NCBI RefSeq assembly: GCF_030013205.1
Contig: NZ_CP122648.1
DNA from: Escherichia coli
GTDB lineage: Bacteria; Pseudomonadota; Gammaproteobacteria; Enterobacterales; Enterobacteriaceae
DNA length: 64,000 bases
Direction: 5' to 3' (one strand)
Made by a program: the position numbers and the translations under genes. The notes beneath the pieces are model-generated. The model saw only the letters and a program-made list of their open reading frames with translations, was not told where the DNA came from and did not search any database. How positions within the stretch are numbered: the stretch's first letter is position 1; each line of letters begins with the position of its first letter. This document shows positions 4,148 to 26,329 of the stretch, in pieces.

Positions 4148-4770
4148 AAAATGTACTGATTCTTGGTGCTGGCGGTCAGATAGCCCGCCATGTGATTAAT
4201 CAACTGGCAGATAAACAAACCATTAAACAAACTTTATTTGCCCGTCAGCCAGCAAAAATCCACAAACCCTATCCCACTAATAGCAAGATTATTATGGGGG
4301 ATGTACTGAATCATGCAGCACTGAAGCAGGCCATGCAGGGACAGGATGTTGTGTATGCCAACCTTACGGGGGAAGATTTAGATATTCAGGCAAATTCAGT
4401 GATCGCTGCGATGAAAGCCGGTGATGTTAAACGTCTGATCTTTGTTCTTTCCCTCGGTATTTATGATGAAGTTCCAGGAAAATTTGGCGAATGGAATAAT
4501 GCAGTTATTGGTGAGCCCCTAAAACCATTCCGCAGGGCTGCGGATGCAATTGAGGCTTCTGGACTGGAATATACAATTCTTCGCCCTGCCTGGCTGACTG
4601 ATGAAGATATTATTGATTATGAGCTTACCTCACGCAATGAACCATTCAAAGGTACGATCGTATCACGTAAGAGTGTCGCTGCATTAATTACAGATATCAT
4701 CGATAAACCTGAGAAACACATTGGTGAGAATATAGGCATCAATCAACCGGTGATGCTGCCAACTTACTGA
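4144..4770 (+). CDS. ymjC: NAD(P)-binding Rossmann-fold oxidoreductase; 3' end altered by IS1 insertion
   Basis: N-terminal MKNVLILGAGGQIARH is a GxGxxG dinucleotide-binding motif. The last 7 codons (PVMLPTY) and the stop are encoded by the IS1 left end; the original 3' end continues at 5526-5559. Confidence 0.6.
   Translation: MKNVLILGAGGQIARHVINQLADKQTIKQTLFARQPAKIHKPYPTNSKIIMGDVLNHAALKQAMQGQDVVYANLTGEDLDIQANSVIAAMKAGDVKRLIFVLSLGIYDEVPGKFGEWNNAVIGEPLKPFRRAADAIEASGLEYTILRPAWLTDEDIIDYELTSRNEPFKGTIVSRKSVAALITDIIDKPEKHIGENIGINQPVMLPTY
4740..4748. repeat. IS1 target-site duplication, left copy (CAATCAACC)
   Basis: Identical 9-mer immediately flanks both IS1 ends. Confidence 0.85.
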
Positions 4771-4803
4771 TTTAGTGTATGATGGTGTTTTTGAGGTGCT
4801 CCA

Positions 4804-5079
4804 GTGGCTTCTGTTTCTATCAGCTGTCCCTCCTGTTCAGCTACTGACGGGGTGGTGCGTAACGGCAAAAGCACCGCCGGACATCAGCGCTATCTCTGCT
4901 CTCACTGCCGTAAAACATGGCAACTACAGTTCACTTACGCCGCCTCTCAGCCCGGTACGCACCAGAAAATCATTGATATGGCCATGAATGGCGTCGGATG
5001 TCGCGCCAGTGCACGCATTATTGGCGTTGGCCTCAACACGATTTTCCGCCACTTAAAAAACTCAGGCCGCAGTCGGTAA
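4804..5079 (+). CDS. insA: IS1 InsA
   Basis: 91-aa ORF with zinc-finger-like CPSCS...CSHC N-terminus; matches recalled InsA. Confidence 0.9.
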
Positions 5080-5501
5080 CCTCGCGCATACAACCGGGCA
5101 GTGATGTGATTGTCTGCGCTGAAATGGACGAACAGTGGGGCTACGTCGGTGCTAAATCACGTCAGCGCTGGCTGTTTTACGCGTATGACAGGATGCGGAG
5201 GACGGTTGTGGCGCACGTCTTCGGTGAACGCACTCTGGCCACACTGGAGCGTCTTCTGAGCCTGCTGTCGGCCTTTGAGGTCGTGGTATGGATGACGGAT
5301 GGCTGGCCGCTGTATGAATCACGCCTGAAGGGAAAGCTGCACGTTATCAGCAAGCGTTATACTCAGCGCATTGAGCGGCATAACCTGAATCTGAGACAAC
5401 ATCTGGCAAGGCTGGGACGGAAGTCACTGTCGTTCTCAAAATCGGTGGAGCTGCATGACAAGGTCATCGGGCATTATCTGAACATAAAACACTATCAGTA
5501 A
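4998..5501 (+). CDS. insB: IS1 InsB (transposase catalytic part, made as an InsAB' fusion by -1 frameshift)
   Basis: 167-aa ORF overlapping insA in the -1 frame; matches recalled InsB. Confidence 0.85.
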
Positions 5502-5516
5502 GTTGGAGTCATTACC

Positions 5517-5724: not shown

Positions 5725-5754
5725 AAATGCAAACAACTTCCATCAAAAAAGTGA
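5725..5754 (+). repeat. 30-bp exact direct repeat, copy B, upstream of mpaA
   Basis: Identical to 1837-1866. Confidence 0.85.
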
Positions 5755-5849
5755 TACAAGATCGATAACATAGCGTTGAAGAAAAGGATTTGATAATCCG
5801 CAAAATTTGCACAACACTGCCTGTAATACTTCCTGAACCAGAGACGATC

Positions 5850-12473: not shown

Positions 12474-13472
12474 ATGCCCCCTACTATTTATGATATTGCC
12501 AGGGTTGCAGGCGTATCAAAATCCACCGTATCACGCGTGCTGAATAAGCAAACCAATATCTCCCCGGAAGCGCGCGAAAAAGTGTTACGGGCCATTGAAG
12601 AATTACAGTATCAACCAAACAAGCTGGCACGCGCGCTGACCTCTTCGGGTTTTGATGCCATTATGGTGATTTCTACCCGTTCGACCAAAACTACGGCGGG
12701 TAATCCGTTTTTCTCGGAAGTTTTACATGCCATCACCGCCAAAGCTGAAGAAGAAGGTTTCGACGTGATATTGCAGACGTCGCACAACCTGGCAGAAGAC
12801 TTACAAAAATGCGAAAGCAAAATTAAGCAGAAAATGATTAAAGGCATTATTATGCTAAGTTCGCCAGCGGATGAGTCATTTTTTGCCCAACTCGATAAAT
12901 ATGATATTCCGGTGGTGGTAATTGGCAAAGTTGAAGGTCAATATGCCCATGTTTATTCTGTCGATACCGATAATTTTGGCGACAGCATTGCGTTGACCGA
13001 TGCGTTAATTGAAAGTGGGCATCAAAATATTGCCTGCCTGCATGCACCGCTTGATGTCCATGTTTCGGTTGACCGCGTTAATGGTTATAAGCAGAGTCTG
13101 GAAGATCATAATATTGCAGTGCGCAATGAGTGGATTGTTGACGGCGGTTATACCCATGAAACAGCCTTGCAAGCCGCACGGCAATTATTAAGCCAGTCGC
13201 CGTTGCCAGAAGCCGTATTTGCCACTGACAGCCTGAAATTAATGAGCATTTATCGTGCGGCAGCAGAGAAAAATATTGCTATTCCGCAGCAGTTAGTGGT
13301 GGTGGGTTATAGCAATGAAACGCTGTCATTTATTTTAACGCCTGCACCGGGCGGCATCGATGTTCCGACGCAGGAGTTAGGGCAACAAAGCTGCGAGTTA
13401 TTATTCCGCTTAATTGCCGGAAAACCGTCACCACAAAATATTACCGTTGCCACGCATATGTCGTTGAAATAA
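12474..13472 (+). CDS. ycjW: LacI-family transcriptional repressor
   Basis: 332-aa ORF with N-terminal LacI-type HTH ([20 protein letters not shown]). Confidence 0.85.
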
Positions 13473-13522: not shown

Positions 13523-14428
13523 TCAGAACGAGTAATTTACGCCGACACCTGCATAATGGAATTTATCGCTGTCGCCTTCGTCGTGATCCTGCCACTCAAA
13601 CGCGTATTCCAGCGAAACGGAAAGACCATTCTGGAAATCATAACCGTAAAATAACCCCACACGGTTAAAATCATGGCCTTCACGTTCAATATCATCCTGC
13701 CAGTCCCAGTTACTCCAGCGATCCAGCCCAATGCGCGTATACGGCGTCACCGAGTGGTTGCCGAGCGTCAGCGGCAAATAGGCATGAATTTCTTGCGTGG
13801 AAAACTCACCGTTATTGCGACTGTCGTCCATATTGAAGCCGCGCTCGAGATAATAGTTCACTCGCAAAGCAACCGTTTCGTTGAAGGTATATTGCAGACC
13901 TGTTTCCGTTTCGACTCGGGTATCAGCGTAACCGGTCGTGTTCAGATCGTTGGCAAATTTATACATCGATAACCAACCGTTGAAACGTAAATCGTCAGTC
14001 AGTTTCACATCCCAGTCTGGCGCGATTTTCCAGCGCTGCATATTCGCCGTGTCTTTACCCGGTTCATCAACGTAGTGATAACCATAATTACGGAAACCGC
14101 CGGTCAGCCCGAAACTGAAATCATCGCTTTCGAGGAACTGATAATGCACCTCCAGCTCCGGGCGATCAAACCACGTTCCACGTTTACCCGCGCTATAATC
14201 TACCGGCCCTTCCTGATAATAGGCCAGAGAAATTCTCCACGGCCCGTTGGCGGCATTAAAATAGACAGAAGGCTCCGCGAGCCCATCCATATCTTCGCCA
14301 TAACCCTCGACGTTTTCTATTTCGTACATCGCGCCGATATTAAAGTGCCAGTCGTTCTTTTCCTCGGCCTGTGCGCAAGCCATTCCCGCACACATCACCA
14401 GTGCGGTACAAGGTAATAATTTTTTCAT
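13523..14428 (-). CDS. ompG: Outer-membrane porin OmpG
   Basis: 301-aa ORF with signal peptide and C-terminal aromatic residue (...GVNYSF). Confidence 0.9.
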   Translation of the reverse strand: MKKLLPCTALVMCAGMACAQAEEKNDWHFNIGAMYEIENVEGYGEDMDGLAEPSVYFNAANGPWRISLAYYQEGPVDYSAGKRGTWFDRPELEVHYQFLESDDFSFGLTGGFRNYGYHYVDEPGKDTANMQRWKIAPDWDVKLTDDLRFNGWLSMYKFANDLNTTGYADTRVETETGLQYTFNETVALRVNYYLERGFNMDDSRNNGEFSTQEIHAYLPLTLGNHSVTPYTRIGLDRWSNWDWQDDIEREGHDFNRVGLFYGYDFQNGLSVSLEYAFEWQDHDEGDSDKFHYAGVGVNYSF

Positions 14429-14472
14429 TATTGTTCCTTGTATTATCCTGGGGGAATGCCTTCCCCCTGTAT

Positions 14473-15555
14473 TTAGCGAATTGCTATTTCCATTTCTGCA
14501 TCAAAGAAATGACATTTAGTCATATCAAAATGAATAGTGATATTTTCTCCTGCATGATAATCATTTAACGCACCAGCACGGACCACCAGTTCGTGCCCCC
14601 CAACCGTGGTGTAGAGCATAAATTCAGCACCGGTTAATTCTGCCACGCTAATTTTGGCGGAAATGTTATTTTCCTCTTGCGCGTCCGGATGAATATCTTC
14701 CGGGCGTATTCCCATCACGATGGGCTTATGCAAACTTTCCTGTGTTTTCAGAACCGCTAATTTCTCTTCGGGAATGGTTAATTTAAGCGTTTCAGTAACG
14801 AATTTATCGCCATCGATCGTGCCGCGAATAAAATTCATCGCCGGTGATCCAATAAATCCGGCAACAAACATATTCGCGGGTTGGTTATAAACCGTTTTCG
14901 GCGCACCTACTTGCTGAACAATCCCATCCTTCATAATCACAATCCGCGTCGCCATGGTCATCGCTTCGGTCTGATCGTGGGTCACGTAGATCATGGTGGT
15001 GTTCAGTTTCTGATGCAGCTTGCTGATCTCTGCGCGCATTTGTACGCGCAGCTTGGCATCAAGGTTAGAGAGCGGTTCATCCATTAAAAACACGCCCGCT
15101 TCGCGCACAATCGCCCGCCCGAGCGCCACACGCTGGCGTTGCCCGCCGGAAAGCGCCCCCGGCTTGCGTTTCAGGTACTCTCGCAGACCGAGAATTTGCG
15201 CCGCCCAGTTCACCCGCTCATCAATCACCTCTTTGGCGATTTTTTGCATCTTCAGGCCAAACGCCATGTTGTCGTAAACCGTCATATGCGGATACAACGC
15301 GTAGTTCTGGAACACCATCGCGATATTGCGTGCTTTGGCTGGAACGTCGTTCATTCGTTTGCCGTCGATCAACAGATCGCCGCCGCTGATCTCCTCAAGC
15401 CCGGCAATCATGCGCAGGGTGGTCGATTTACCGCAGCCCGACGGGCCGACAAATACGATGAACTCTTTATCGGCAATTTCCAGGTTGAAGTCCTTCACCA
15501 CATGCACCTGGTTATCGTAGATTTTTTGAATATGTTGTAACGAAAGCTGAGCCAT
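14473..15555 (-). CDS. ycjV: ABC transporter ATP-binding protein (MalK-like), intact here
   Basis: 360-aa ORF with Walker A GPSGCGKST and signature LSGGQRQR. Confidence 0.85.
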   Translation of the reverse strand: MAQLSLQHIQKIYDNQVHVVKDFNLEIADKEFIVFVGPSGCGKSTTLRMIAGLEEISGGDLLIDGKRMNDVPAKARNIAMVFQNYALYPHMTVYDNMAFGLKMQKIAKEVIDERVNWAAQILGLREYLKRKPGALSGGQRQRVALGRAIVREAGVFLMDEPLSNLDAKLRVQMRAEISKLHQKLNTTMIYVTHDQTEAMTMATRIVIMKDGIVQQVGAPKTVYNQPANMFVAGFIGSPAMNFIRGTIDGDKFVTETLKLTIPEEKLAVLKTQESLHKPIVMGIRPEDIHPDAQEENNISAKISVAELTGAEFMLYTTVGGHELVVRAGALNDYHAGENITIHFDMTKCHFFDAEMEIAIR

Positions 15556-15568
15556 GTTGATTCCTTTG

Positions 15569-16228
15569 CTATACGTTTTGCCAGAAGGCCGATAACCGCG
15601 GCCAGGTGAGTGATTCCGTTGAGGGCAACAATAATTGCGCCCCGGTTAAGCCTGCGCCGATCCCCACCGAGCGCATACCGCTGGCGTTAATGGCGTCAAT
15701 GCCCGCCTGCGCATCTTCAATGCCGATACATGCCTGCGGCGGCACGCCCAGTCCGGCACAGGCGGCGAGAAAGATTTCCGGGTCCGGTTTCGAGTTTTTA
15801 AGTTGGGAAGCGTCCGCGCAGAAGGTGAAAAACTCACGCAGCTCCAGTGCATCTAAAATCGTCGGCGCATTGAGGGAGACAGAAGCCAGCCCTACCGGGA
15901 TCTGTTGTGCACGGAGATCTGTCAGCAAAGAGCGAATGCCGGGCAGCACAGCATTAACCGTCAGTTCGCGCAATGAATGGACGTAGAGCAGATTTTTGCG
16001 ATACGCCAGTTGCGCCCGTTCCTGTGGGTTAAAATCGCCCTCTTTACCCCCGTGTTGCAGAATGCGGCGCAGAGACTCATCGCGGCTGATCCCTTTTAGA
16101 GTTTCGTTAAACTGCGCATCAATGCTGATGCCAATTTCAGCGGCAATCTGCTGCCACGCCTGGAAATGCAGATGCGCGGTATCGGTGATTACTCCATCCA
16201 GATCGAAAATTACCCCTTGCAGTTTCAT
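15569..16228 (-). CDS. ycjU: Beta-phosphoglucomutase (HAD superfamily)
   Basis: 219-aa ORF with HAD motif I ([10 protein letters not shown]). Confidence 0.85.
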
Positions 16229-18492
16229 TCATTCTCCTGATGCGTGGTAGCGGTCCCATTGAAGGGCAAAATAAAATCACCCAAACAGAAAACAGATTCT
16301 TCAGCCACAGATATAAGCTGCCCGTTCAAACGCAGTGAAACGGGCGCAGAAGTTCGAATCGCAATACGCTGCGCGTCGAGAGTGACCTGTAATTCGCAGC
16401 CCTGCCAGAACAGAGGGAAAGACAACTGTTGCCACTGCACAGGTAACGCCGGATTCAAATTTAATTCACCGTCACGCACGCTCACCCCGGCAAAACCCTG
16501 AATCGCCCCCAGCCAGATAGCGCCAGTTGCGGCAGCATGGATACCGTCGTCGCAGCTATGCGGGTCAGCACCGAGATCGATTTCAGTCCCCTCCCGCCAG
16601 AACTGATAACTTTGCGCCAACAGGCCACAGCGTGCGGCAACAATGCCGTGGATCGCTTTACTCAGTGAAGAGTCGTGAATGGTGCGCGGTTCATAAAATT
16701 GCAGATTGGCAAGACACGATGCCGCTGAGTACTGCTCCGGCAGCATGTAATTGAGCATCACCACATCAGCTTGTTTGAGGATCTGCATCTCGTTCACTTC
16801 TGCGCGTGAATAATCCAGCAGAATGGTTTGCTTCCCCGCCGCCGCTTTGTATTTCGCCAGATTAATCGCTGGTTTCGCCATAAACGAATCATCCTGCGGC
16901 AAAACGCCGTCGGGCTGAATTTCTGGCAGCCGCAGTTCTTTAAGGAACATTTCGGCGCGATGGATAAATGCATCGTCGCTACAGCCAAACTGGCGGGCAA
17001 TACTCAGCGCCTGCTGGACGTTGTAATACGCCATATAGCTGGTGAAGGCGTTATTATTGACATGTTCGGTATATTCGTCAGGCCCAATAACATCATGAAT
17101 TTCCAGACGGTCGTTAACCCTCACCGCGCGGCTAATCCAGAACTTTGCAGTTTCCAGAAGTAGCGCCATGCCTTCATGCGCAATGAAACTTTCATCCCCC
17201 GTGGTCTGCCAGTATTGAATAACCGCCCAGGCGATATCGGCCACCAGATGATGTTCCGCCTGCGCCGAGGCCACTTTTTGCCGCAGCCCGGTGCGAATGT
17301 TAATGGCGGCAAATTCCGGCGTCTCTTCTTCGCCGCTGCGCGCGCTTTCCCACGGAAATAGCGCGCCCTGCCAGCCGTTGCGTCGCGCTTTCTCCTGCGC
17401 GCCTGGCAAGTTGTGCCAGCGATAACGCAGTAAACTTCTGGCAATCGTCGGTTCGCTAAACAGATGGAACGGCAGTAAAAATACTTCCGTATCCCAGAAA
17501 ACGTGGCCTTTGTAGCCTTCCCCGGTCAAACCTTTTGCCGCAATACTGCTGCGCTCGTCGTGAGCAGGCGTCATGATGCGTAGGTGATAAAGCGCATAAT
17601 CTAACGCTTGCTGATCGTGCGCATCGCCACCGTTTACCGTGATACGACGTTTCTGCCACCATTGACGCCAGTTTTCTGTGGATGCTGCAAGAAGTTGGTC
17701 GTAACTCTGCTGTACACACATTTCAAGCTGACGAAGCGACGCACTGCCCCACTCGTCTAAAGCGACGTGCCTGTCATCCCGCCAGTCGATCCACACCAGT
17801 TTTTGCAGCGTCAGCGTTTCGCCTGCGTGAAGTTGCGCACTGGTATGTTGCAGCAAGCGGCGCTCTTTGGCGGTATAGCATTGCTGCACATCACCGCTCA
17901 CCTTACAGCAACAGCTGATGGCCACATCACTGCGCCCATCCTGGGTGGTGTAGATCCCCTGCATCAGATGCTGACCAAATACCCGCACCTGGGTTTCGTC
18001 GAGATGTTGGCGACCGTGGTTGGTTTGCGTGGCGTCAATGCCTGTTGAAATCAGCACTGACGCGTCGGCGTCCAGCGCAGTAATAGTGATTTCCAGTGCA
18101 ATCAGCGGCAGGTGGTCTGCCGAAACAAAGCGACGGCTGGCGATGGTGTAACGCGCGCCGTTGCTGGTACACCAGACAACGTTGCGGCGTAATTCGCCAC
18201 TGGCAAAGTCAAGCTCACGCTGCCATGTTTCGCGGGATAACGAGAAAACCTCACCATTTATGGCAATCTCCATCCCCACGACATCAGGCAGGTTCACCAG
18301 TTCGTTGATTTCACCCTTACCCGCTCGATGATACAGCCCCGCCAGATACATGCCGCGCGTCTGGCGCGTGTAATCTTCTTCATGGCTGGCGCGAAGCCCA
18401 AGATAGCCGTTCCCCTGCGCCATCAGTGAAGCATATTTGTTCAGGGTATGCTGGCTGAAATGGGGTTCTGATAACGTTACTGGCCTGGTCAT
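16225..18492 (-). CDS. ycjT: Glycoside hydrolase family 65 phosphorylase (kojibiose phosphorylase)
   Basis: 755-aa ORF; 4-bp overlap with ycjU and ycjS. Confidence 0.85.
16243..16259. promoter_or_regulatory. 17-bp exact repeat (minus strand ATGGGACCGCTACCACG) 15-31 nt upstream of the ycjU start; candidate YcjW operator
   Basis: Identical 17-mer at 26172-26188 upstream of ycjM. Operator assignment is inference. Confidence 0.35.
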
Positions 18493-19544
18493 AATTCCAC
18501 ACGCGTCCCTGTTTCTGCGGATTGATACAACGCCGCCACCAGTTGCTGGATGATGTATCCCTGCTCGGCGTCGGCTATCATCACGGGCTTGCCCTGTACG
18601 TGATTGATAAAGGATTCCATACTGCGCAGATGACGGTTGTCGTCTGCCATTTCCCGTTGCATCAGCGTCATTAACTCACCGTTGTTATCGGTATAGATAT
18701 GTGCTGGAAACAGCGTTGCACCAGCTTTATCACCACAAAAGCTGACGTTCATAATCGACTGTTCGCGGATGTTGAGTGCAAATGACGTTTCCAGCCACAG
18801 AATGCCGCCGTTATGAAATTCAATGGTGCCAAATAACGAATCTTCGACGCTGTAAGTTGCCGGATCCCACTCGCCAAATTGACCACAGCTCTTTTGTGTG
18901 CCGATCTTTTGAAAGCTATGCGCGGTCACGCTTTTCACCGCCGGAAAGCCCAGTACATACATCGCCGCATCCAGCATATGAATGCCGATGTCGATCAGCG
19001 GCCCGCCGCCCTGCAATTCTTTATTGGTAAAAACGCCCCAGCCGGGAACGCCGCAGCGACGCAGGGCGCGGGCGGTGGTAACGTAAATCTCTCCCAAAAC
19101 GCCGTTGGTCACCTGTTCACGCAGCTGTTGCGTATCGAGTGCAAAACGATGGTGAAAGTCGTAGGCCAGCACCTTGCCCTGTTTGCGCGCGGTATCGCAC
19201 ATTTCCCGCGCCTGTTCTGGCGTCATGGCGGGCGGTTTTTCGCACATCACATGGCAGCCCGCTTCCAGCGCCATCAGGGTATGTTCGTAATGAAAACGGT
19301 TAGGTGAGCAGACGCTAACCACATCAGGTTTCACCGCCAGCAGCATGGCCTGCGGATCGTCCCACACGGATGCATTCCCGTATTTTTCTGCCAGCGCCTG
19401 CGCCTGGGAAAGGCGGCTGTCACAGACAGCCACCAGTTCCAGATCGTTGCGGGTGCAGTAGTACGAAGCATGAACCTTATCCGCCACCTGGCCTGCGCCG
19501 ATTATCGCGACCCGCAGTGGAGAGCTTGTCATTGCACTTTTCAC
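18489..19544 (-). CDS. ycjS: Gfo/Idh/MocA-family NAD-dependent oxidoreductase
   Basis: 351-aa ORF with N-terminal Rossmann motif (VAIIGAGQVA). Confidence 0.85.
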   Translation of the reverse strand: MKSAMTSSPLRVAIIGAGQVADKVHASYYCTRNDLELVAVCDSRLSQAQALAEKYGNASVWDDPQAMLLAVKPDVVSVCSPNRFHYEHTLMALEAGCHVMCEKPPAMTPEQAREMCDTARKQGKVLAYDFHHRFALDTQQLREQVTNGVLGEIYVTTARALRRCGVPGWGVFTNKELQGGGPLIDIGIHMLDAAMYVLGFPAVKSVTAHSFQKIGTQKSCGQFGEWDPATYSVEDSLFGTIEFHNGGILWLETSFALNIREQSIMNVSFCGDKAGATLFPAHIYTDNNGELMTLMQREMADDNRHLRSMESFINHVQGKPVMIADAEQGYIIQQLVAALYQSAETGTRVEL

Positions 19545-19553
19545 AAAGACCTC

Positions 19554-20342
19554 TTAGCAGGTACGCAACCAGGCCAAAGAATCACGGTACGCCTGGGCAG
19601 GATTTTCTGCCCGGATACGCCCTTCATACACCACATAACCCTGATAGTTATCGGCGCGCAGCTGTTCAAACAGCGCGTGGAAATCGAGGGTGCCGCTGCC
19701 CGGCTGGTAACGATGGTTATCGGCAATATGCACATGACCGAGCAGGTCGCGGTTGTCGTGCAGCGCCTGCGCCAGGTTATCTTCTTCGATATTCATGTGA
19801 TAGAAATCGCCGATAATCTGCACATGTTTAAGATCGTTTTCGACGATGTAACGACGAGCATCGGCGAGGGTGTTGATCATGTGATCCTGATAGCGGTTTA
19901 ACGGTTCGAGGTACACCACGGTTCCGGTACGCGCGGCTACCTGTTCCAGCACGCGCAGGGAATCACTCACCATTTTGCGGTCGCCATCCAGGCTGCGCGG
20001 CGAGGTCATCGGCGGTAAACGGAAGGTAAACATGCCCCATGCAGCAGGAACGACGATACCTTTACCGCCCACTTCGGCCAGCGCTTCAAGAATGCGTTCG
20101 ATCTGCTTTAAGCCATTAAGACGACGCTCTTCGATAAAGTCGCCAATCCAACCGTCATAGCCACCGCAGGCGGTGGTCACCGGTAAGCCGGTTTCTTTGA
20201 TTGCCGCTTTGACTTCTTCGATATTGTTGACCAGCAGTTTGCCGTCAATCTCAAAAATATCGAAGCCCATCTCTTTGATATAACGAAATTTCTCCAGAAT
20301 GTTTTCTGGAAAGAACGCCTGATTCTGTGTGCCGATTTTCAT
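19554..20342 (-). CDS. ycjR: Sugar-phosphate isomerase/epimerase (TIM-barrel)
   Basis: ORF 19554-20351; start tentatively placed at MKIGTQ to give 262 aa. Confidence 0.8.
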   Translation of the reverse strand: MKIGTQNQAFFPENILEKFRYIKEMGFDIFEIDGKLLVNNIEEVKAAIKETGLPVTTACGGYDGWIGDFIEERRLNGLKQIERILEALAEVGGKGIVVPAAWGMFTFRLPPMTSPRSLDGDRKMVSDSLRVLEQVAARTGTVVYLEPLNRYQDHMINTLADARRYIVENDLKHVQIIGDFYHMNIEEDNLAQALHDNRDLLGHVHIADNHRYQPGSGTLDFHALFEQLRADNYQGYVVYEGRIRAENPAQAYRDSLAWLRTC

Positions 20343-20360
20343 TTTTATCATTCCTTTGAA

Positions 20361-21413
20361 TTAAAACGTGACGCCCATTTTGATGCTCTGTTCCGGATGC
20401 TGGTCGACATACTGCATGTAACTTTCCGGGCTATTGGCAAAGGTCACCACCGGGTCGATTAAATCTTCACAATTGAGATAACCGTTCATCAGCAGTTCCC
20501 AACAGGTTTCTTCGATACGTTTGCGGCTCCAGCGCGGATAATCCGGGTTCGGCTCGCTGCACGCACGGGAGAAAACAATTTTGGCGTTATTGAAATGGGC
20601 TTCGCGTCCGAGGTTAAAACCTTCGGCAAACGGTTTGGCAAACGCGACATACGAGATGGTGCCGCCATATGCCAGGCCGCGAAGCGCCGATTGCAGCGCG
20701 TCGGCGTAACCGCTGGTTTCGATAATCACATCGGCACCCTGCTTGCCGGTCAGCGTTTTGATCTCTTTGCCTACGTCAGTGCCAATAGGGTTAAGGCAGA
20801 AATCCGCACCGTGTCGACGAGCAATATCACAACGATGGGCAATAGGATCGACGCCAATTACCACCGATGCGCCAGCGCGTTTCGCCAGTTGGATGGCAAT
20901 TTGACCGATCGCGCCAAGCCCTACCACCACGACAAAATCCCCTACGCGCACGTTGGCATCGCGCACGCCGCTCATGGCAAACTGCGCCGGGTCGTAGCAG
21001 ACGGCGTTTTTCCACGAACTGCCTTGCGGCATTTTGCGCAGCTTGTAGTTATTCACCGCGTTAATGATGACCGTTTCGGAAAGCGGGCCGTAGCCGCATA
21101 CGCTGTCGCCCACCGCGTAGTCGGTAACGTCGCTGCCGCACTCGATAATGTCGCCAACCACCATGTTGCCAAGCTGGAATTTGCCAAACTCAATGCCGCG
21201 CGGCGCATCTGCCGGACGCGGGGTAAACATCTGCCATTCGCCGTTAAAGTCTTCATCGATAAACGGGCTGGCGGCGCGGAAATCGACCACTTCCGTTCCA
21301 TGTTTCGGCGCGCCGAAACGCACGCGGATCTTCACTTCATTGGCTAAAATCGCCCGATCTTCATACTCAACCAGCGCAGCTACGCGCGGTGCTGTGGCTA
21401 CTAACTTTTTCAT
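20361..21413 (-). CDS. ycjQ: Zinc-dependent medium-chain dehydrogenase
   Basis: 350-aa ORF with GxGxxG NAD-binding motif (VVGLGAIGQ). Confidence 0.85.
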   Translation of the reverse strand: MKKLVATAPRVAALVEYEDRAILANEVKIRVRFGAPKHGTEVVDFRAASPFIDEDFNGEWQMFTPRPADAPRGIEFGKFQLGNMVVGDIIECGSDVTDYAVGDSVCGYGPLSETVIINAVNNYKLRKMPQGSSWKNAVCYDPAQFAMSGVRDANVRVGDFVVVVGLGAIGQIAIQLAKRAGASVVIGVDPIAHRCDIARRHGADFCLNPIGTDVGKEIKTLTGKQGADVIIETSGYADALQSALRGLAYGGTISYVAFAKPFAEGFNLGREAHFNNAKIVFSRACSEPNPDYPRWSRKRIEETCWELLMNGYLNCEDLIDPVVTFANSPESYMQYVDQHPEQSIKMGVTF

Positions 21414-21443
21414 GTAAAACTCCTTGTAAAGAAACTGGCCGCT

Positions 21444-22286
21444 TTAGCCCTTCACGCCACCGGCGGTCAAACCACTCTTAATAAAACGCTCCGAAAGCGC
21501 ATACATAATCACCACCGGCAATGCGGTCACCAGTGAGGCCGCCATCATCCGTCCCCAGATGTAATCAGGCGTACTGAACAGCGCGTTCAGGCCCACCGGT
21601 AAGGTGAAATTGCTGGCGCTGGAGAGGAAAATCGACGCAAACAGATAGTCGTTCCATGCCACCATAAAGCAGTAGACGAACACGGATATCAGCCCCGACA
21701 TCGCCAGGGGCACGGTGATACGGAAGATGATTTGCAGACGGTTGAGGCCATCCATCATCGCCGCTTCTTCGATCTCATCAGGGATGGTGTCGAAGTAGCT
21801 TTTCAGCATAAACACGGCGGTGGGCAGGGTTTGCGTCACCATGGTAATGATCAGCGCCATCTCGGTGTCGTAAATGCCCAGCGCGGTGATGATTTTGAAC
21901 AGCGGCACCACCAGCAAAATGCCAGAGAACATATACACCGTGTAAAAGCTGGCATTGATGGTCATCCGACCTTTAAAGCGCAGGCGGGAAAGCGCGTAAG
22001 CCCCAAGAATGCCGAGGAATACCGCCACCACGGATGAAACCACCGACACCACCAGACTGTTACGGAAGTAGTCGACAAACGGGAAAATCATCGGGTTAAA
22101 AATGTCGACGTAATGCTCCAGCGTCCACTGCTGCGGCAGCAGCGTAGGATGCAGTGAGATCGCCTCTTTCGCGCCCTTGAACGAGGTCATCAGCATCACA
22201 AAAAATGGAAACAGCGTGATGATGAGAAACAGCGCCAGCCCGCAGTAAAAACCGATGCGACTGAGTGTGCGTTTATTTGTTGCCAT
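21444..22286 (-). CDS. ycjP: ABC sugar transporter permease
   Basis: 280-aa multi-pass membrane ORF. Confidence 0.85.
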   Translation of the reverse strand: MATNKRTLSRIGFYCGLALFLIITLFPFFVMLMTSFKGAKEAISLHPTLLPQQWTLEHYVDIFNPMIFPFVDYFRNSLVVSVVSSVVAVFLGILGAYALSRLRFKGRMTINASFYTVYMFSGILLVVPLFKIITALGIYDTEMALIITMVTQTLPTAVFMLKSYFDTIPDEIEEAAMMDGLNRLQIIFRITVPLAMSGLISVFVYCFMVAWNDYLFASIFLSSASNFTLPVGLNALFSTPDYIWGRMMAASLVTALPVVIMYALSERFIKSGLTAGGVKG

Positions 22287-23154
22287 TGAGGTTCACCCGT
22301 TTCCTGGTCAGCAGAATGACAGCGAAAATAATGATGAAGAGCACCACCGAGATCGCCGCCGCTTTTCCTAAATCATTAAAGGCAAAGGCGGTTTTGTAGA
22401 GATATACACCGAGAATATCGACCTTGGTCGTCAGCAAATAAACATCCGCGAACATGTAGAACATCCAGATGGTGCGCAGGGTCACCACCGTCGCCAGGAC
22501 CGGCATAATCGCGGGCAGCGTGACGATGCGAAACCGTTGCCAGGCATTAGCGCCATCCATCTCTGCCGCTTCGTACAGCGATTTGTCGATGGTCTGCAAA
22601 ATCGCCAGAAACGAGATGAAGGCATACGGGAAGTAGCGCCAGATGGCGAACAGCACCACCAGCACAAAGCTACTGCCCGGATTATCGAACCACAGCGGCG
22701 CCTGCTCGTAGAGATGCAGAAGATCGACGCCGAGGTAGTTCACAATGCCGTAGCCGTTGTTGAACATGTATTTCCAGGCGAACACCAGCGAAATGGACGG
22801 CGTTACGTAGGAGAGGATCACCAGCGAACGCGCGGTTTTGCGCAGGCGGAACTCGCGGTTGAAAAACATCGCCACGGCCAGCCCGAGTACGGTGCTGCCC
22901 GCCACCACCAGCGCCGTATACCAGACCGTCATCCACAGCGAGTGCCAGAAGCCGGGATCGGAGAGAATGCGCACATAGTTACTCACCCCAACAAACGTTG
23001 ACTCGATGTTGGGATTGAGCGGCAGACGTAAAAAACTGATTTCGATATTCGACACCATCGGCCACGCCACCAGACCGCCCAGCAGTAATAAGCTGGGCGC
23101 GAGAAGCAACAGCGCAAAGGGCATATCGGAACGACCTGAAAAAAGCCTGTTCAT
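22273..23154 (-). CDS. ycjO: ABC sugar transporter permease
   Basis: 293-aa multi-pass membrane ORF; overlaps ycjP. Confidence 0.85.
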   Translation of the reverse strand: MNRLFSGRSDMPFALLLLAPSLLLLGGLVAWPMVSNIEISFLRLPLNPNIESTFVGVSNYVRILSDPGFWHSLWMTVWYTALVVAGSTVLGLAVAMFFNREFRLRKTARSLVILSYVTPSISLVFAWKYMFNNGYGIVNYLGVDLLHLYEQAPLWFDNPGSSFVLVVLFAIWRYFPYAFISFLAILQTIDKSLYEAAEMDGANAWQRFRIVTLPAIMPVLATVVTLRTIWMFYMFADVYLLTTKVDILGVYLYKTAFAFNDLGKAAAISVVLFIIIFAVILLTRKRVNLNGNK

Positions 23155-23174
23155 TGCGGATTCCTGTCCTGGGT

Positions 23175-24467
23175 TTAGTGCTGTTCAACCAACTCATCCA
23201 GCTTTTTCTGGCTCGTTTGCAGCGTGGTAGAGAGGTCGGCTTTACCCACGGTGACGTTATGCACCATGGAGCTCACCACGCCAGAACCCGTCACATCGCC
23301 CATGCGGGTAAAATTTTTATCCCCTACTGCGCCAAAGACCTGAATATTTGGCAGTTCGCTGATTAACTGATTTGGCAGCTCACCCAGCGCCTTAATAACG
23401 TCGTTGTCTTTCCAGGTGGCGGTAGTGACAACCGCTTTGTTCACCGGCAGCGCCGCGCCTGGCGACATCATCACCCAGTCGGCAATGTTGTCTGCCTGCT
23501 CCATAAAGGTGACAAATTTTTCAGCCGCTTCGGTCTCTTCAGTCTTTTGCCCGGCGGTAATGGTCAGCGAGGTCAACATGCCGTAGACCGCAGAGTTTTT
23601 CTCCGTTGGCACCACGAAACCGACGTTTTTCGGATCGCCTTCTTTAATCACAGCCGGAAGGATATAGGTGGAGTAAATCGCCATCGGCGCGGTGCCGTTC
23701 ATAAAGGCATCTTTCACTTCCATGATGTCGTTAGAACCCGGCATGGTGTTGGCGGCAAGGTCGCGGTAATAGGTCAGCGCCTGCATCATCTCTGGTGTAT
23801 CAAGGGTGATTTTGCCTTCGGCGTTAAAGACGTTGGCCTGGTTGGATAACGCAAACTGGGAGAAGGATTGTTCCGTCAGCACGCTTTCTGCCGTAGGCAG
23901 CGCAATACCGTATTTTTTATTCGCCGGGTCATTCAGTTTCTGTGCAACGTCCAGCAGCTGTTGCCAGTTTTTCGGCTCCTCCAGCCCCGCTTTTGCCAGC
24001 ACATCTTTGCGATACCAGATGCCGCCAATCCAGGCGCTGACCGGAACACCGGTCCAGGCGCTGCCATCTTCGGTGCGCACAATACGCAGTACGCCATCGT
24101 AGAACGCGCCTTCACCAACGTTGCTGATGACCGTGGCAACCGCTTTACGATCGATAAGCTGCTCTTTGTCCATAACTTTGGCGTAGTCATGGCTGGTTTC
24201 GATCACTTCCGGCAGCGAGCCGCTACGTGACAGGGTTATGACTTTGGTGTTATAGGCATCTTCTTCCACTGGCACTTGTTTAACGGTGATGCCCGGGTTT
24301 TCTTTTTCAAAACGGGCAATCAATTTACTGATAACGGCCTGACGCTCCTGCTCCACCGAAGAATGCATAAATTCGATGGATACATGGGTTTTATTTTCTT
24401 CTTTACAGCCTGAAATCAGGGCGCAGGAAACCAGTGCTGATAACAGCACGATTTTTGATTTAATCAT
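23175..24467 (-). CDS. ycjN: ABC transporter periplasmic sugar-binding lipoprotein
   Basis: 430-aa ORF with signal peptide and lipobox (LISGC). Confidence 0.85.
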   Translation of the reverse strand: MIKSKIVLLSALVSCALISGCKEENKTHVSIEFMHSSVEQERQAVISKLIARFEKENPGITVKQVPVEEDAYNTKVITLSRSGSLPEVIETSHDYAKVMDKEQLIDRKAVATVISNVGEGAFYDGVLRIVRTEDGSAWTGVPVSAWIGGIWYRKDVLAKAGLEEPKNWQQLLDVAQKLNDPANKKYGIALPTAESVLTEQSFSQFALSNQANVFNAEGKITLDTPEMMQALTYYRDLAANTMPGSNDIMEVKDAFMNGTAPMAIYSTYILPAVIKEGDPKNVGFVVPTEKNSAVYGMLTSLTITAGQKTEETEAAEKFVTFMEQADNIADWVMMSPGAALPVNKAVVTTATWKDNDVIKALGELPNQLISELPNIQVFGAVGDKNFTRMGDVTGSGVVSSMVHNVTVGKADLSTTLQTSQKKLDELVEQH

Positions 24468-24481
24468 GAGATGTTCCTTTT

Positions 24482-26161
24482 TTATTTAATCCACATAACC
24501 TGCCAGGGGCGCAGCGTTATTTCATTACCCAATATATCAACTTCACTAATCAGATCCCGACCGTGCAGATCAGTAATATTTATATGCTGAATATTTTCAC
24601 TGACATTAAACAATCCTGTCAGACAATTACCATCCGCGTTGTTTCTTTGAATACGCATTACGGATGAATTAACCGTATCGATGGTAAAATCATTATCCGG
24701 ATGAAACTCGTTATGACTGCAACGAAGTGTAATTAAACGCGACAACTGATGATATACCGCATGCCTTAATGTATCTTCATCGTTCAGTTCTCGGGTTATC
24801 TCTTCATTGTGATATTTTTTACGGTTAATCGCACGGTTATATCCCAGTTTTTCGACACCTGCGTAATCATTACGCGAGCCAAGAATACTTTGAATATATA
24901 TCGCTGGCACACCGGGGAAACTTAACAAAATCGCATGGGCAAGGATAAACCTGGCGCAACGTTCTACATCGCTACTCTCGCGGCGGCTTAACGCATCCAT
25001 ATAGGTGACATTTATTTCATAGGGACTGCGCGTACCGTCGGGATTATTTTTCCAGTTTACTAATGCACCTTCCTGCTGTAATGCCTCGACCAGCGCTAAT
25101 ATTTCGCTTTCGGGTAACAAGCCACGCAGTGGGTTCGGCCCGATGCCATCGTGAGAGGCGAGGAAGTTAAACCAGGTGGTGTTGCTGGAAGGTAGTGTCA
25201 GGTTTTGCGCCCACGCACAAAGCGCCTCAACGTTCTGTTTTTGCACCGCATGCAGCACCAGCGGCGGCAGCGAGAACTGGTACACCATATGTGCTTCGTC
25301 ATCGCCTTCGCCAAAGTAAGCAATGTTGTCTTTATGCGGAACATTGGTCTCGGTAATGATCACTGTGCCTGGCGCGACGTTATCAATAATCGACCGTAAC
25401 AGTTTGATAATCAGATGTGTTTTTTCCAGATGGATGCAGCTTGTTCCCGGCTCTTTCCATATAAAGCCAACGGCATCCAGACGGACGTATTCCGCGCCCT
25501 TTTCCAGATAACACAGCAATACATCCACCATCGCCAGCAACACTTCAGGGCTACGGTAATTGAGGTCAATTTGATCGTCGCTAAAGGTGGTCCATAAATG
25601 GCGCGTGGAATTATCATCCATTTGAAACGGTGTTAATAGCGGTAACGCACGCGGACGGGTGACGGCGCTGAGATCGGTTTGCGGATCAACCGCAATAAAA
25701 AAATCTTCAAAACCTGGATGCTGTTGTAAATAGTTTTTAAACCATTCACTTTTTGCCGACATATGGTTGCAGACAAAATCAAACATTAAATGACTGCATT
25801 CACCGAGTTGCTGAATATCCTGCCACTCCCCCGCTTCACTGGCGACCTGATGATAATCAATTACCGAAAACCCATCATCAGATGACCATGGATAAAAAGG
25901 TAATAAATGAACATGTGAAAAAATGCTTTGCAGCCATTGATGGTAAAACTGATTAAATGTGGGTAGTGGTTTTAAATCATTACTGTGAAATTGATCAGCA
26001 TAGGTAATTAACACGACATCACTTTCATCCCAGTGTTTTTTACGTCGCTGTGTAATTAATCGTTTCGCACTCTCAAGACGCGTTACAAGTTTCTGTAAAT
26101 GAGTTGCGGTAAATGTTCCACCGTAGATTTCGTCCAGGTAATCCGTAATTTTCTGTTTCAT
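24482..26161 (-). CDS. ycjM: GH13 sucrose-phosphorylase-family enzyme (glucosylglycerate phosphorylase)
   Basis: ORF 24482-26188; start placed at MKQKITDY (GGAAAGG 6 nt upstream) to give 559 aa. Confidence 0.85.
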   Translation of the reverse strand: MKQKITDYLDEIYGGTFTATHLQKLVTRLESAKRLITQRRKKHWDESDVVLITYADQFHSNDLKPLPTFNQFYHQWLQSIFSHVHLLPFYPWSSDDGFSVIDYHQVASEAGEWQDIQQLGECSHLMFDFVCNHMSAKSEWFKNYLQQHPGFEDFFIAVDPQTDLSAVTRPRALPLLTPFQMDDNSTRHLWTTFSDDQIDLNYRSPEVLLAMVDVLLCYLEKGAEYVRLDAVGFIWKEPGTSCIHLEKTHLIIKLLRSIIDNVAPGTVIITETNVPHKDNIAYFGEGDDEAHMVYQFSLPPLVLHAVQKQNVEALCAWAQNLTLPSSNTTWFNFLASHDGIGPNPLRGLLPESEILALVEALQQEGALVNWKNNPDGTRSPYEINVTYMDALSRRESSDVERCARFILAHAILLSFPGVPAIYIQSILGSRNDYAGVEKLGYNRAINRKKYHNEEITRELNDEDTLRHAVYHQLSRLITLRCSHNEFHPDNDFTIDTVNSSVMRIQRNNADGNCLTGLFNVSENIQHINITDLHGRDLISEVDILGNEITLRPWQVMWIK

Positions 26162-26171
26162 GTTGCCTTTC

Positions 26172-26188
26172 CGTGGTAGCGGTCCCAT
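26172..26188. promoter_or_regulatory. 17-bp exact repeat (minus strand ATGGGACCGCTACCACG) 11-27 nt upstream of the ycjM start; candidate YcjW operator
   Basis: Identical to 16243-16259. Sits at the head of the ycjM operon, overlapping the ribosome-binding region. Confidence 0.35.
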
Positions 26189-26329
26189 GAAACGAGAGAC
26201 TACTCCGCAGAAAATAAACTGTCAATTGAGCACAAGGGTTTTAGTCACGCAGGAAATCATTTTTTACCAGGGAAAAAGCGTATTTGTGAGCTGACGCAAA
26301 TAATCTATGGGGATGTAAATAAGGTGTGA

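Follow-up and report, generated by a model that had tools for sequence, protein, structure and literature searches.

The two YcjW operator sites of the Escherichia coli ycjM–ompG operon and the possible role of the internal site

The ycj locus and its repeated 17-mer

The window analyzed here is a 64-kb stretch of Escherichia coli DNA that includes the carbohydrate operon running from ycjM to ompG and, adjoining ompG, the gene for the LacI-family repressor YcjW. Gene positions were taken from an E. coli record of 100% identity, as annotated by RefSeq. From the promoter end of the operon, the relevant features are:

26172–26188, minus strand: O_M, the YcjW operator at ycjM (exact match; the centre of EMSA probe LL58)
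24482–26161, minus strand: ycjM, which encodes glucosylglycerate phosphorylase and opens the operon (annotation)
16225–18492, minus strand: ycjT, kojibiose phosphorylase (annotation), with O_U encoding its final N-G-T-A-T-T
16243–16259, minus strand: O_U, the internal YcjW operator within the 3′ end of ycjT (exact match; ChIP-exo)
13523–16228, minus strand: the distal genes 3′ of O_U (annotation), comprising the next three entries
15569–16228, minus strand: ycjU/pgmB (annotation)
14473–15555, minus strand: ycjV (annotation)
13523–14428, minus strand: ompG (annotation)
12474–13472, plus strand: ycjW, LacI-family repressor, adjoining ompG (RefSeq annotation)

The ycjV gene is intact in this strain, whereas it is a pseudogene in K-12. 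The 332-residue YcjW protein matches the Pfam LacI HTH domain at residues 4–49 (E = 3e-20) and the periplasmic-binding-protein fold (Peripla_BP_1/3) at residues 74–323.

The 17-mer ATGGGACCGCTACCACG has two exact matches in a scan of the window, at 26172–26188 and 16243–16259, both on the minus strand as the preliminary description of this DNA had reported. O_M ends 10 nt before the ycjM ATG (26161) and O_U ends 14 nt before the ycjU ATG (16228), which places them 11–27 and 15–31 nt upstream of their respective genes; the RefSeq starts agree with the distances originally given. The ycjU copy had also been located inside the 3′ end of ycjT, and the annotated ycjT stop (16225–16227) bears this out, with O_U falling within the last 11 codons. 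Both copies had further been described as overlapping the ribosome-binding region. They do lie near both ribosome-binding sites, but the Shine–Dalgarno sequences (GGAAAGG from 26172 for ycjM and AGGAG at 16238–16234 for ycjU) abut the 17-mers and are not contained within them. The 17-mer also contains an ATG in frame with ycjM (26188), and a start there would give a 568-aa ORF. We rejected this alternative as not conserved, since other genera have the upstream codon in another frame or follow it with a stop. The distance between O_M and O_U is 9,929 bp.

No third match to ATGGGACCGCTACCACG is present in the 64-kb window, even when three mismatches are allowed, and none of 100 shuffles gave two matches. 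A repeat of this length is nevertheless not significant by itself in 64 kb. At least one exact 17-mer repeat occurred in 28 of 40 simulated 64-kb windows (70%; first-order Markov), which justifies the caution on chance matches voiced in the preliminary description, and the real window holds five further exact 17-mer repeats that are unrelated to ATGGGACCGCTACCACG. We have therefore left the repeat out of the evidence, and the case for operators rests elsewhere.

The conserved unit is a 14-bp core, TGGGACCGCTACCA, located at 26174–26187 in O_M and at 16245–16258 in O_U. The core is an imperfect palindrome with half-sites TGGGAC and TGGTAG flanking a central CG, in which five of seven positions are symmetric. 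Written as TGGGAC C|G CTACCA, it has the form of LacI/GalR operators, which are pseudopalindromes of 14–20 bp with a central CG. Perfect matches to TGGNANCGNTNCCA occur in the 64 kb only at O_M and O_U. At no more than one mismatch, no additional YcjW box turned up in the rest of the ycj cluster or ahead of ycjW, so the motif offers no hint that the E. coli repressor regulates its own gene. The 17-bp identity is specific to this strain. In K-12 MG1655 the ycjU copy reads ATGGGACCGCTACCAaa, and relative to K-12 a CG replaces AA just 3′ of the O_U core, making the exact repeat 17 bp here and 15 bp there. Every base of the O_M region is the same as in K-12 and in the EMSA probe.

YcjW binding and conservation of the sites

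The K-12 operators of YcjW map to the same two loci and contain the same 14-bp motif. Luhachack et al. (2019; Nat Commun 10:2868, PMC6599011) observed YcjW ChIP-seq peaks before the ycjM start codon and between ycjT and ycjU, and defined a 14-nt YcjW motif. Their 50-bp ycjM EMSA probe, LL58, was shifted by YcjW (the EMSA probes used were ycjM, narP and cyaA only; PMC6599011). Sequence comparison shows that LL58 equals window positions 26208–26159, with the 17-mer in its centre. Deletion of ycjW derepresses ycjM, ycjT, ycjU and ompG, and kojibiose releases YcjW from DNA (Luhachack et al. 2019, PMC6599011). A second study, by ChIP-exo (Gao et al. 2021; NAR 49:9696, PMC8464067, Dataset S4), reports signal/noise values of 1665 at ycjU and 840 at ycjM, the remaining 62 of the 64 YcjW sites having values of 120 or less (PMC8464067). 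In both the ChIP-seq (PMC6599011) and the ChIP-exo (PMC8464067) data, no YcjW site in the genome ranks above the ycjM and ycjU loci. YcjW is not named in the main text of Ravcheev 2014.

We compared the ChIP-exo intervals with the two boxes, as had been suggested in the preliminary description, after converting coordinates from NC_000913.2 to NC_000913.3 (a 1,977-bp conversion, its offset calibrated on ycjU, narP and cyaA). The interval 1378133–1378162 (NC_000913.2) encloses the O_U core and extends 8 bp beyond it at either end, and the narP and cyaA intervals are centred on their motifs. At ycjM, the ChIP-seq peak and the EMSA shift agree with O_M, but the ChIP-exo interval does not. That interval, 1368320–1368355 (NC_000913.2), lies inside ycjM, displaced from O_M by about 107 bp in the downstream direction, and this 107-bp displacement persisted when we attempted to reconcile it with O_M through the ycjU, narP and cyaA calibration.

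The 14-mer is present at both the ycjM and ycjU positions in about 45 Enterobacteriaceae genomes. The core is found 24–27 nt from the ycjM start in every Enterobacterales locus that spans the region, a few genera having an orientation or variant form. A 14-mer box lies 23–28 nt before ycjM in all 49 Enterobacterales loci listed, and 48 Enterobacteriaceae loci have one 21–38 nt ahead of ycjU. Among distinct Enterobacterales sequences, the 14-mer is identical in 37 of 47 ycjM sites and 33 of 48 ycjU sites, and the non-identical boxes are variants that preserve the palindrome. Information content falls sharply beyond the 14-bp core, where the flanks are variable. Within the species, about 92–93% of the 5,426 complete genomes contain, for each site region, a 40-mer with an identity of 90% or more. 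Outside the Enterobacterales, a variant box occupies the same position before ycjM in most Bacillaceae loci. The second site, at ycjU, is wholly absent from Firmicute loci and from Chimaeribacter. Almost every locus that extends far enough to cover ycjW carries the gene together with the boxes.

Each copy is situated in the 5′ leader of a gene or around its ribosome-binding site, and this placement, together with the frequency of exact 17-mer repeats in simulated windows, might suggest a chance match or an RNA-level element, such as a hairpin or translational operator, in place of a DNA operator. Such an origin is extremely improbable given the retention of the 14-mer across genera at both positions and the published YcjW binding. 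The palindrome, with two internal mismatches and a 4-nt centre, would also make a poor hairpin. RNA structure at both leaders was rejected as a candidate feature, as the leader RNAs fold no more stably than shuffled sequences (z = −0.42 and +0.74).

The two 17-mers are almost certainly two operators of YcjW. The preliminary description had proposed that the copies are operators of the neighboring repressor, one of them internal to the operon, and the published ChIP-seq, EMSA, ChIP-exo and derepression results uphold this. All of this was already known: a 2019 publication described both sites, their motif, YcjW itself, its inducer and the operon under its control, and independent confirmation followed in 2021. 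Recovery of the sites thus carries little weight as a discovery; reading of the DNA alone did recover a real regulatory pair. The present analysis adds the trimming of the element to its 14-bp core, the conservation of both sites across the Enterobacteriaceae and of the promoter-proximal site also in Bacillaceae, and the maintenance of O_U at the DNA level inside ycjT.

The ycjM promoter region

Two further features lie upstream of O_M:

26197–26225, minus strand: predicted sigma-70 promoter of ycjM (read from the sequence and its conservation)
26285–26300, minus strand: CRP-like site TTTGCGTCAGCTCACA, with two mismatches to TGTGA-N6-TCACA

The predicted promoter consists of a −35 hexamer TTGACA (26225–26220), a 17-nt spacer and a −10 hexamer TAGTCT (26202–26197). 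Nearly all Enterobacterales loci retain TTGACA and TAG(T/A)(C/T)T, with 37–38 nt from the start of the −35 hexamer to the operator core. Consensus promoter and terminator scans around O_M found nothing; we regard this as a false negative for the ycjM promoter, since its −10 hexamer matches only three of six consensus positions. Transcription is predicted to start at about 26188–26190, so that O_M would span roughly +2 to +15, in agreement with the published statement that the ycjM site lies after a predicted TSS (Luhachack et al. 2019, PMC6599011).

The CRP-like site TTTGCGTCAGCTCACA is centred at about −102 relative to the predicted ycjM start. It is kept in most Enterobacterales loci at 64–65, 53–54 or 31 nt from the −35 hexamer, spacings that differ by about whole helical turns. 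We consider it a candidate activator site, CRP being the inferred protein.

YcjW, probably acting as a dimer, binds the 14-bp core and keeps the 11 genes of ycjMNOPQRSTUV-ompG silent until it is released by a kojibiose-like sugar. Judging from the promoter–operator geometry, YcjW bound at O_M would sterically block either the binding of RNA polymerase or its escape from the promoter, as at lacO1. O_M resembles lacO1 in being pseudo-palindromic with a central CG, and in lying just downstream of the predicted transcription start, about 25 nt ahead of the initiation codon of the first gene; YcjW, like LacI, is released by a sugar. The YcjW core differs in being 14 bp long, O_M has no auxiliary operators within looping distance, and YcjW is probably a dimer lacking the tetramerisation tail.

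Possible roles of the internal operator

O_U is positioned 9.9 kb downstream of O_M, and its most likely role would be that of a second, independent lock on ycjU-ycjV-ompG. The box always occupies the same ycjT reading frame (tail translations of 22 loci), and its third-codon positions are invariant while the rest of the YcjT tail is unconserved. Variant O_U boxes change the encoded residues from GTAT to GSGT, and in Atlantibacter the ycjT ORF ends before the box. Together, the invariant third positions, the residue-changing variants and the Atlantibacter ORF indicate that the constraint acts on the DNA and not on the protein.

One way in which O_U could act is as a pure roadblock, stopping polymerases that arrive from PycjM, from the psp promoter or from spurious intragenic promoters, so that phosphoglucomutase, ABC ATPase and OmpG, a porin with a large pore, stay off despite upstream leak. 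We give this mechanism an even chance. O_U lies 9.9 kb from the only conserved promoter, PycjM, and a consensus scan of the 500 bp upstream of O_U found no promoter- or terminator-like site. Direct reading of the upstream sequence likewise reveals neither a −35 match nor an extended −10 and, unlike at O_M, no CRP-like site. The box has also been retained within coding sequence at the cost of four fixed codons. Roadblocks formed by LacI-family proteins are known, for example PurR at purB and CcpA at intragenic cre sites, and they too count in favor of a roadblock at O_U. Counting against the roadblock, the release of ycjU and ompG on deletion of ycjW might follow from loss of repression at PycjM alone. 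Site-directed mutants of O_M or O_U were not found in the YcjW literature.

Alternatively, O_U may repress a weak internal promoter for ycjU-ycjV-ompG located in the last 40 nt of ycjT. The −10-like sequence TATTTT is found exactly 9 nt upstream of the O_U core, the same spacing as in TAGTCT-N9-core at O_M, and about half of genera have TATTTN at this position. Several other genera have TCTTGC or CTTTGC instead. TATTTT is accompanied by neither a −35 element nor a TG extension, and since it shares bases with the conserved D-F-I-L codons of YcjT, its conservation may reflect coding. With the consensus scan empty as well, we view an internal promoter as possible but rather unlikely; no internal ycjU promoter came to light in a search of the literature.

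A third arrangement, cooperation between O_M and O_U by DNA looping in the manner of lac O1, O2 and O3, is suggested by the two identical high-affinity sites bound by one LacI-family protein in a single operon, yet several properties of the system make it highly improbable. The sites are separated by 9,929 bp. The sugar-binding fold of YcjW continues to residue 323 of 332, leaving no room for a C-terminal tetramerisation helix of the LacI type; YcjW thus lacks the C-terminal oligomerisation helix that characterizes tetrameric repressors, and it is modelled as a dimer (Gao et al. 2021, PMC8464067). The complete absence of the second site from Chimaeribacter and Firmicute loci also argues against looping.

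Returning to the roadblock, we tentatively propose, at somewhat less than even confidence for the combined statement, that O_U is an Enterobacteriaceae-specific, DNA-level insertion in the ycjT tail that acts as a roadblock and splits the operon into two independently locked modules, ycjM-T and ycjU-V-ompG. If so, O_U would be both a conserved operator that dictates four codons of an enzyme (G-T-A-T) and a roadblock at an internal gene junction; we found no discussion of either role in the published accounts of YcjW.

Like the sites used by PurR at purB and by CcpA at cre, O_U is a high-affinity intragenic site far from the operon promoter. The putative roadblock at O_U differs from these in occupying a junction between genes, not the first gene, and it would create two gated modules. 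Mutations in ycjW have been selected repeatedly in the mouse gut, and this, together with the large pore of OmpG, lends some relevance to the contribution of O_U to ycjU-ycjV-ompG silencing.

The two YcjW operators

The 17-mer ATGGGACCGCTACCACG has exactly two exact matches in the 64-kb window by pattern search, both on the minus strand: 26172–26188 at O_M, the operator upstream of ycjM, and 16243–16259 at O_U, the internal operator before ycjU. No third match occurs in the window at up to three mismatches. The preliminary description placed these copies 11–27 nt 5' of the ycjM ATG and, within the end of ycjT, 15–31 nt 5' of the ycjU ATG, and both distances agree with the RefSeq annotation of one record identical to the window region, from which the gene coordinates are taken. 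Several swine ETEC chromosomes share the segment 13400–28400 at 100% identity, and all but three of the 5,426 complete E. coli genomes (5,423) match it.

Genes of the ycj region (RefSeq annotation of the identical record)
12474–13472, plus strand, ycjW
13523–14428, minus strand, ompG
14473–15555, minus strand, ycjV
15569–16228, minus strand, ycjU/pgmB
16225–18492, minus strand, ycjT
between ycjT and ycjM, minus strand, ycjS, R, Q, P, O and N
24482–26161, minus strand, ycjM
upstream of ycjM, minus strand, pspE

The ABC ATPase gene ycjV is an intact 360-aa ORF here (compared with locus L081, 11822–12903); in K-12 MG1655 it is an annotated pseudogene, split into ycjV and ymjB. An alternative ycjM start at the ATG inside the 17-mer (26161–26188) is in frame and corresponds to the 568 aa of the ORF list versus the annotated 559. 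It was rejected because the extension is not conserved, being out of frame or stopped in other genera.

The bare 17-bp repeat is no more than expected by chance. Five more repeated 17-mers, unrelated to ATGGGACCGCTACCACG, are present in the window, and first-order Markov simulation of it gave at least one in 28 of 40 runs, so that the initial caution about the match was justified and the operator argument must stand on other evidence. The MG1655 ycjU copy is ATGGGACCGCTACCAaa, with 15 bp of identity between the two copies in K-12; the 17-bp identity is thus a feature of this strain, and what counts is the 14-bp core. This core, TGGGACCGCTACCA, is an imperfect palindrome with a central CG, as is characteristic of operators of the LacI family. 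In the 64 kb only O_M and O_U match the degenerate palindrome TGGNANCGNTNCCA perfectly, and no other box within one mismatch is found in the ycj cluster or before ycjW. YcjW itself contains a LacI helix-turn-helix (residues 4–49) followed by a periplasmic-binding-protein fold.

Both sites coincide in locus, motif and repressor with those published for K-12 (PMC6599011, PMC8464067), which supports their proposed identity as YcjW operators; the pair itself is already known. Luhachack et al. 2019 (PMC6599011) performed ChIP-seq with FLAG-tagged YcjW, found a 14-nt motif common to the bound regions, and showed by EMSA that YcjW shifts a 50-bp ycjM probe. They also report that YcjW is freed from DNA by kojibiose, but not by sucrose or trehalose. 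The probe in their supplementary primer table, GAGTAGTCTCTCGTTTCATGGGACCGCTACCACGGAAAGGCAACatgAAAC, corresponds by sequence comparison to window positions 26208–26159, with the 17-mer in its centre. Among the 64 YcjW ChIP-exo sites of Gao et al. 2021 (PMC8464067, Dataset S4), ycjU and ycjM have signal/noise values of 1665 and 840, about an order of magnitude above all others. After conversion of the intervals to NC_000913.3, the ycjU interval brackets the O_U core with 8 bp on either side, and the narP and cyaA intervals are likewise centred on their motifs. The tabulated ycjM interval (NC_000913.2 1368320–1368355), by contrast, lies ~107 bp downstream of O_M, inside the gene (window ~26080–26045, codons ~27–39), with no motif-like sequence under it. 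A weaker peak inside ycjN (signal/noise 38) is similarly placed.

What remains new is the putative mode of action of O_U and the position of this operator within the coding tail of ycjT, together with the comparative evidence from box conservation and DNA-level constraint in ycjT.

Conservation of the boxes

A YcjT scan with one genome per species yielded 79 loci with the cluster. Enterobacteriaceae retain the gene order ycjM-N-O-P-Q-R-S-T-U-V-ompG / ycjW, and all Enterobacterales loci covering the region have a YcjW box 23–28 nt 5' of the ycjM start. In Escherichia, Citrobacter, Salmonella diarizonae, Enterobacter, Leclercia, Lelliottia, Buttiauxella, Siccibacter, Atlantibacter and others, a second box is found 21–38 nt 5' of the ycjU start. 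Among distinct sequences, the identical 14-mer accounts for 37 of the 47 boxes at ycjM and 33 of the 48 at ycjU; the remainder, for example TGGGAGCGGTACCA, vary in ways that preserve the palindrome. Beyond the core, information content falls away sharply, save for a 3' GGA that is the Shine-Dalgarno sequence. Within E. coli, a 40-mer with 90% or higher identity to the O_M region is present in 5,029 of 5,426 genomes, and one matching the O_U region equally well in 4,977. The internal box is degenerate in Budvicia and absent from the Chimaeribacter and Firmicute loci, and therefore looks like an Enterobacteriaceae acquisition.

The Firmicute loci (L044–L079; Bacillaceae, Listeria, Paenibacillus) contain most of the ycjMNOPQRST and ycjW cluster. 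Their proteins are unusually close to those of E. coli (YcjQ 72–79%, YcjO up to 78% identity), which points to horizontal transfer. The interval separating ycjW from the divergent ycjM holds two to five tandem boxes (TGGGAGCGGTACCA), mostly ~33, 42–43 or 54 bp apart (e.g. L058 2006/2060/2114/2169; L044 2068/2111/2153/2199), and the proximal box is 24–26 nt 5' of the ycjM start in the majority of the Firmicute loci.

Proposed mode of action at O_M and O_U

The predicted ycjM promoter, PycjM, consists of TTGACA (26225–26220), a 17-nt spacer and TAGTCT (26202–26197), both hexamers being conserved across genera with constant spacing to the box. The consensus promoter scanner did not detect PycjM because the −10 element is weak. 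Transcription would begin at ~26188–26190, placing the box at ~+2 to +15. This anatomy matches lacO1 and implies that YcjW at O_M would sterically repress initiation or promoter escape; O_M has the character of a promoter-proximal LacI-family operator. The published placement of the site after a predicted start (PMC6599011) agrees with this geometry. A CRP-like site (TTTGCGTCAGCTCACA; 26285–26300, minus strand; two mismatches to TGTGA-N6-TCACA) is centred at ~−102 from the predicted start. Twelve of its 16 bases are the same as in the lac CRP site. It is kept in most Enterobacterales loci, where its distance to the −35 hexamer is 64–65, 53–54 or 31 nt, spacings that differ by roughly whole helical turns. 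This suggests that the promoter, whose −10 is weak, is activated in the class-I manner.

The O_U box always occupies the same frame of ycjT (x-G-T-A-T-x), and the rest of the tail is unconserved. Variant boxes alter the encoded residues (G-S-G-T) and the Atlantibacter ycjT ORF ends 5' of the box, which argues that the constraint is on DNA, not protein. An RNA-level role of the boxes is unlikely, as neither leader folds more stably than shuffled sequence. Consensus scanning near O_U found neither promoter nor terminator, and neither a −35 element nor a CRP-like site is present there. These absences favour O_U acting as a transcriptional roadblock, to which we give about an even chance, over a model in which it represses a weak internal promoter. 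The latter reading, which we consider possible but doubtful, draws on a TATTTT (weak −10) 9 nt 5' of the box, a spacing equal to that at O_M; however, the hexamer lies over conserved D-F-I-L codons, which means that protein coding alone may account for its conservation, and it has no −35 partner. Looping between O_U and O_M is unlikely given the 9.9 kb between them and a YcjW fold that reaches residue 323 of 332, leaving no tetramerisation tail. As a putative roadblock, O_U would resemble intragenic LacI-family operators such as that of PurR at purB.

Other features of the window

A direct repeat, exact over 30 bp and 92% identical over 37 bp, AAATGCAAACAACTTCCATCAAAAAAGTGA, occurs at 1837–1873 and 5725–5761, upstream of mppA (minus strand) and mpaA (plus strand). 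Since mppA and mpaA both function in the uptake and recycling of murein tripeptide, the repeat may be a common regulatory site. In the closest record the nearby regulator gene pgrR contains an internal stop and is annotated as a pseudogene. An IS1 copy occupies 4749–5516, directly 3' of an annotated SDR-oxidoreductase ORF and between ycjY and mpaA; its inverted ends are GGTGATGCTGCCAACTTACTGAT, and its transposase has a programmed frameshift. Feature coordinates in the closest record, NZ_CP122719.1, are 1 bp off the window below ~6578 and not above 7636, a one-sided shift that implies that window and record differ by a single-base indel, outside the ycj region.
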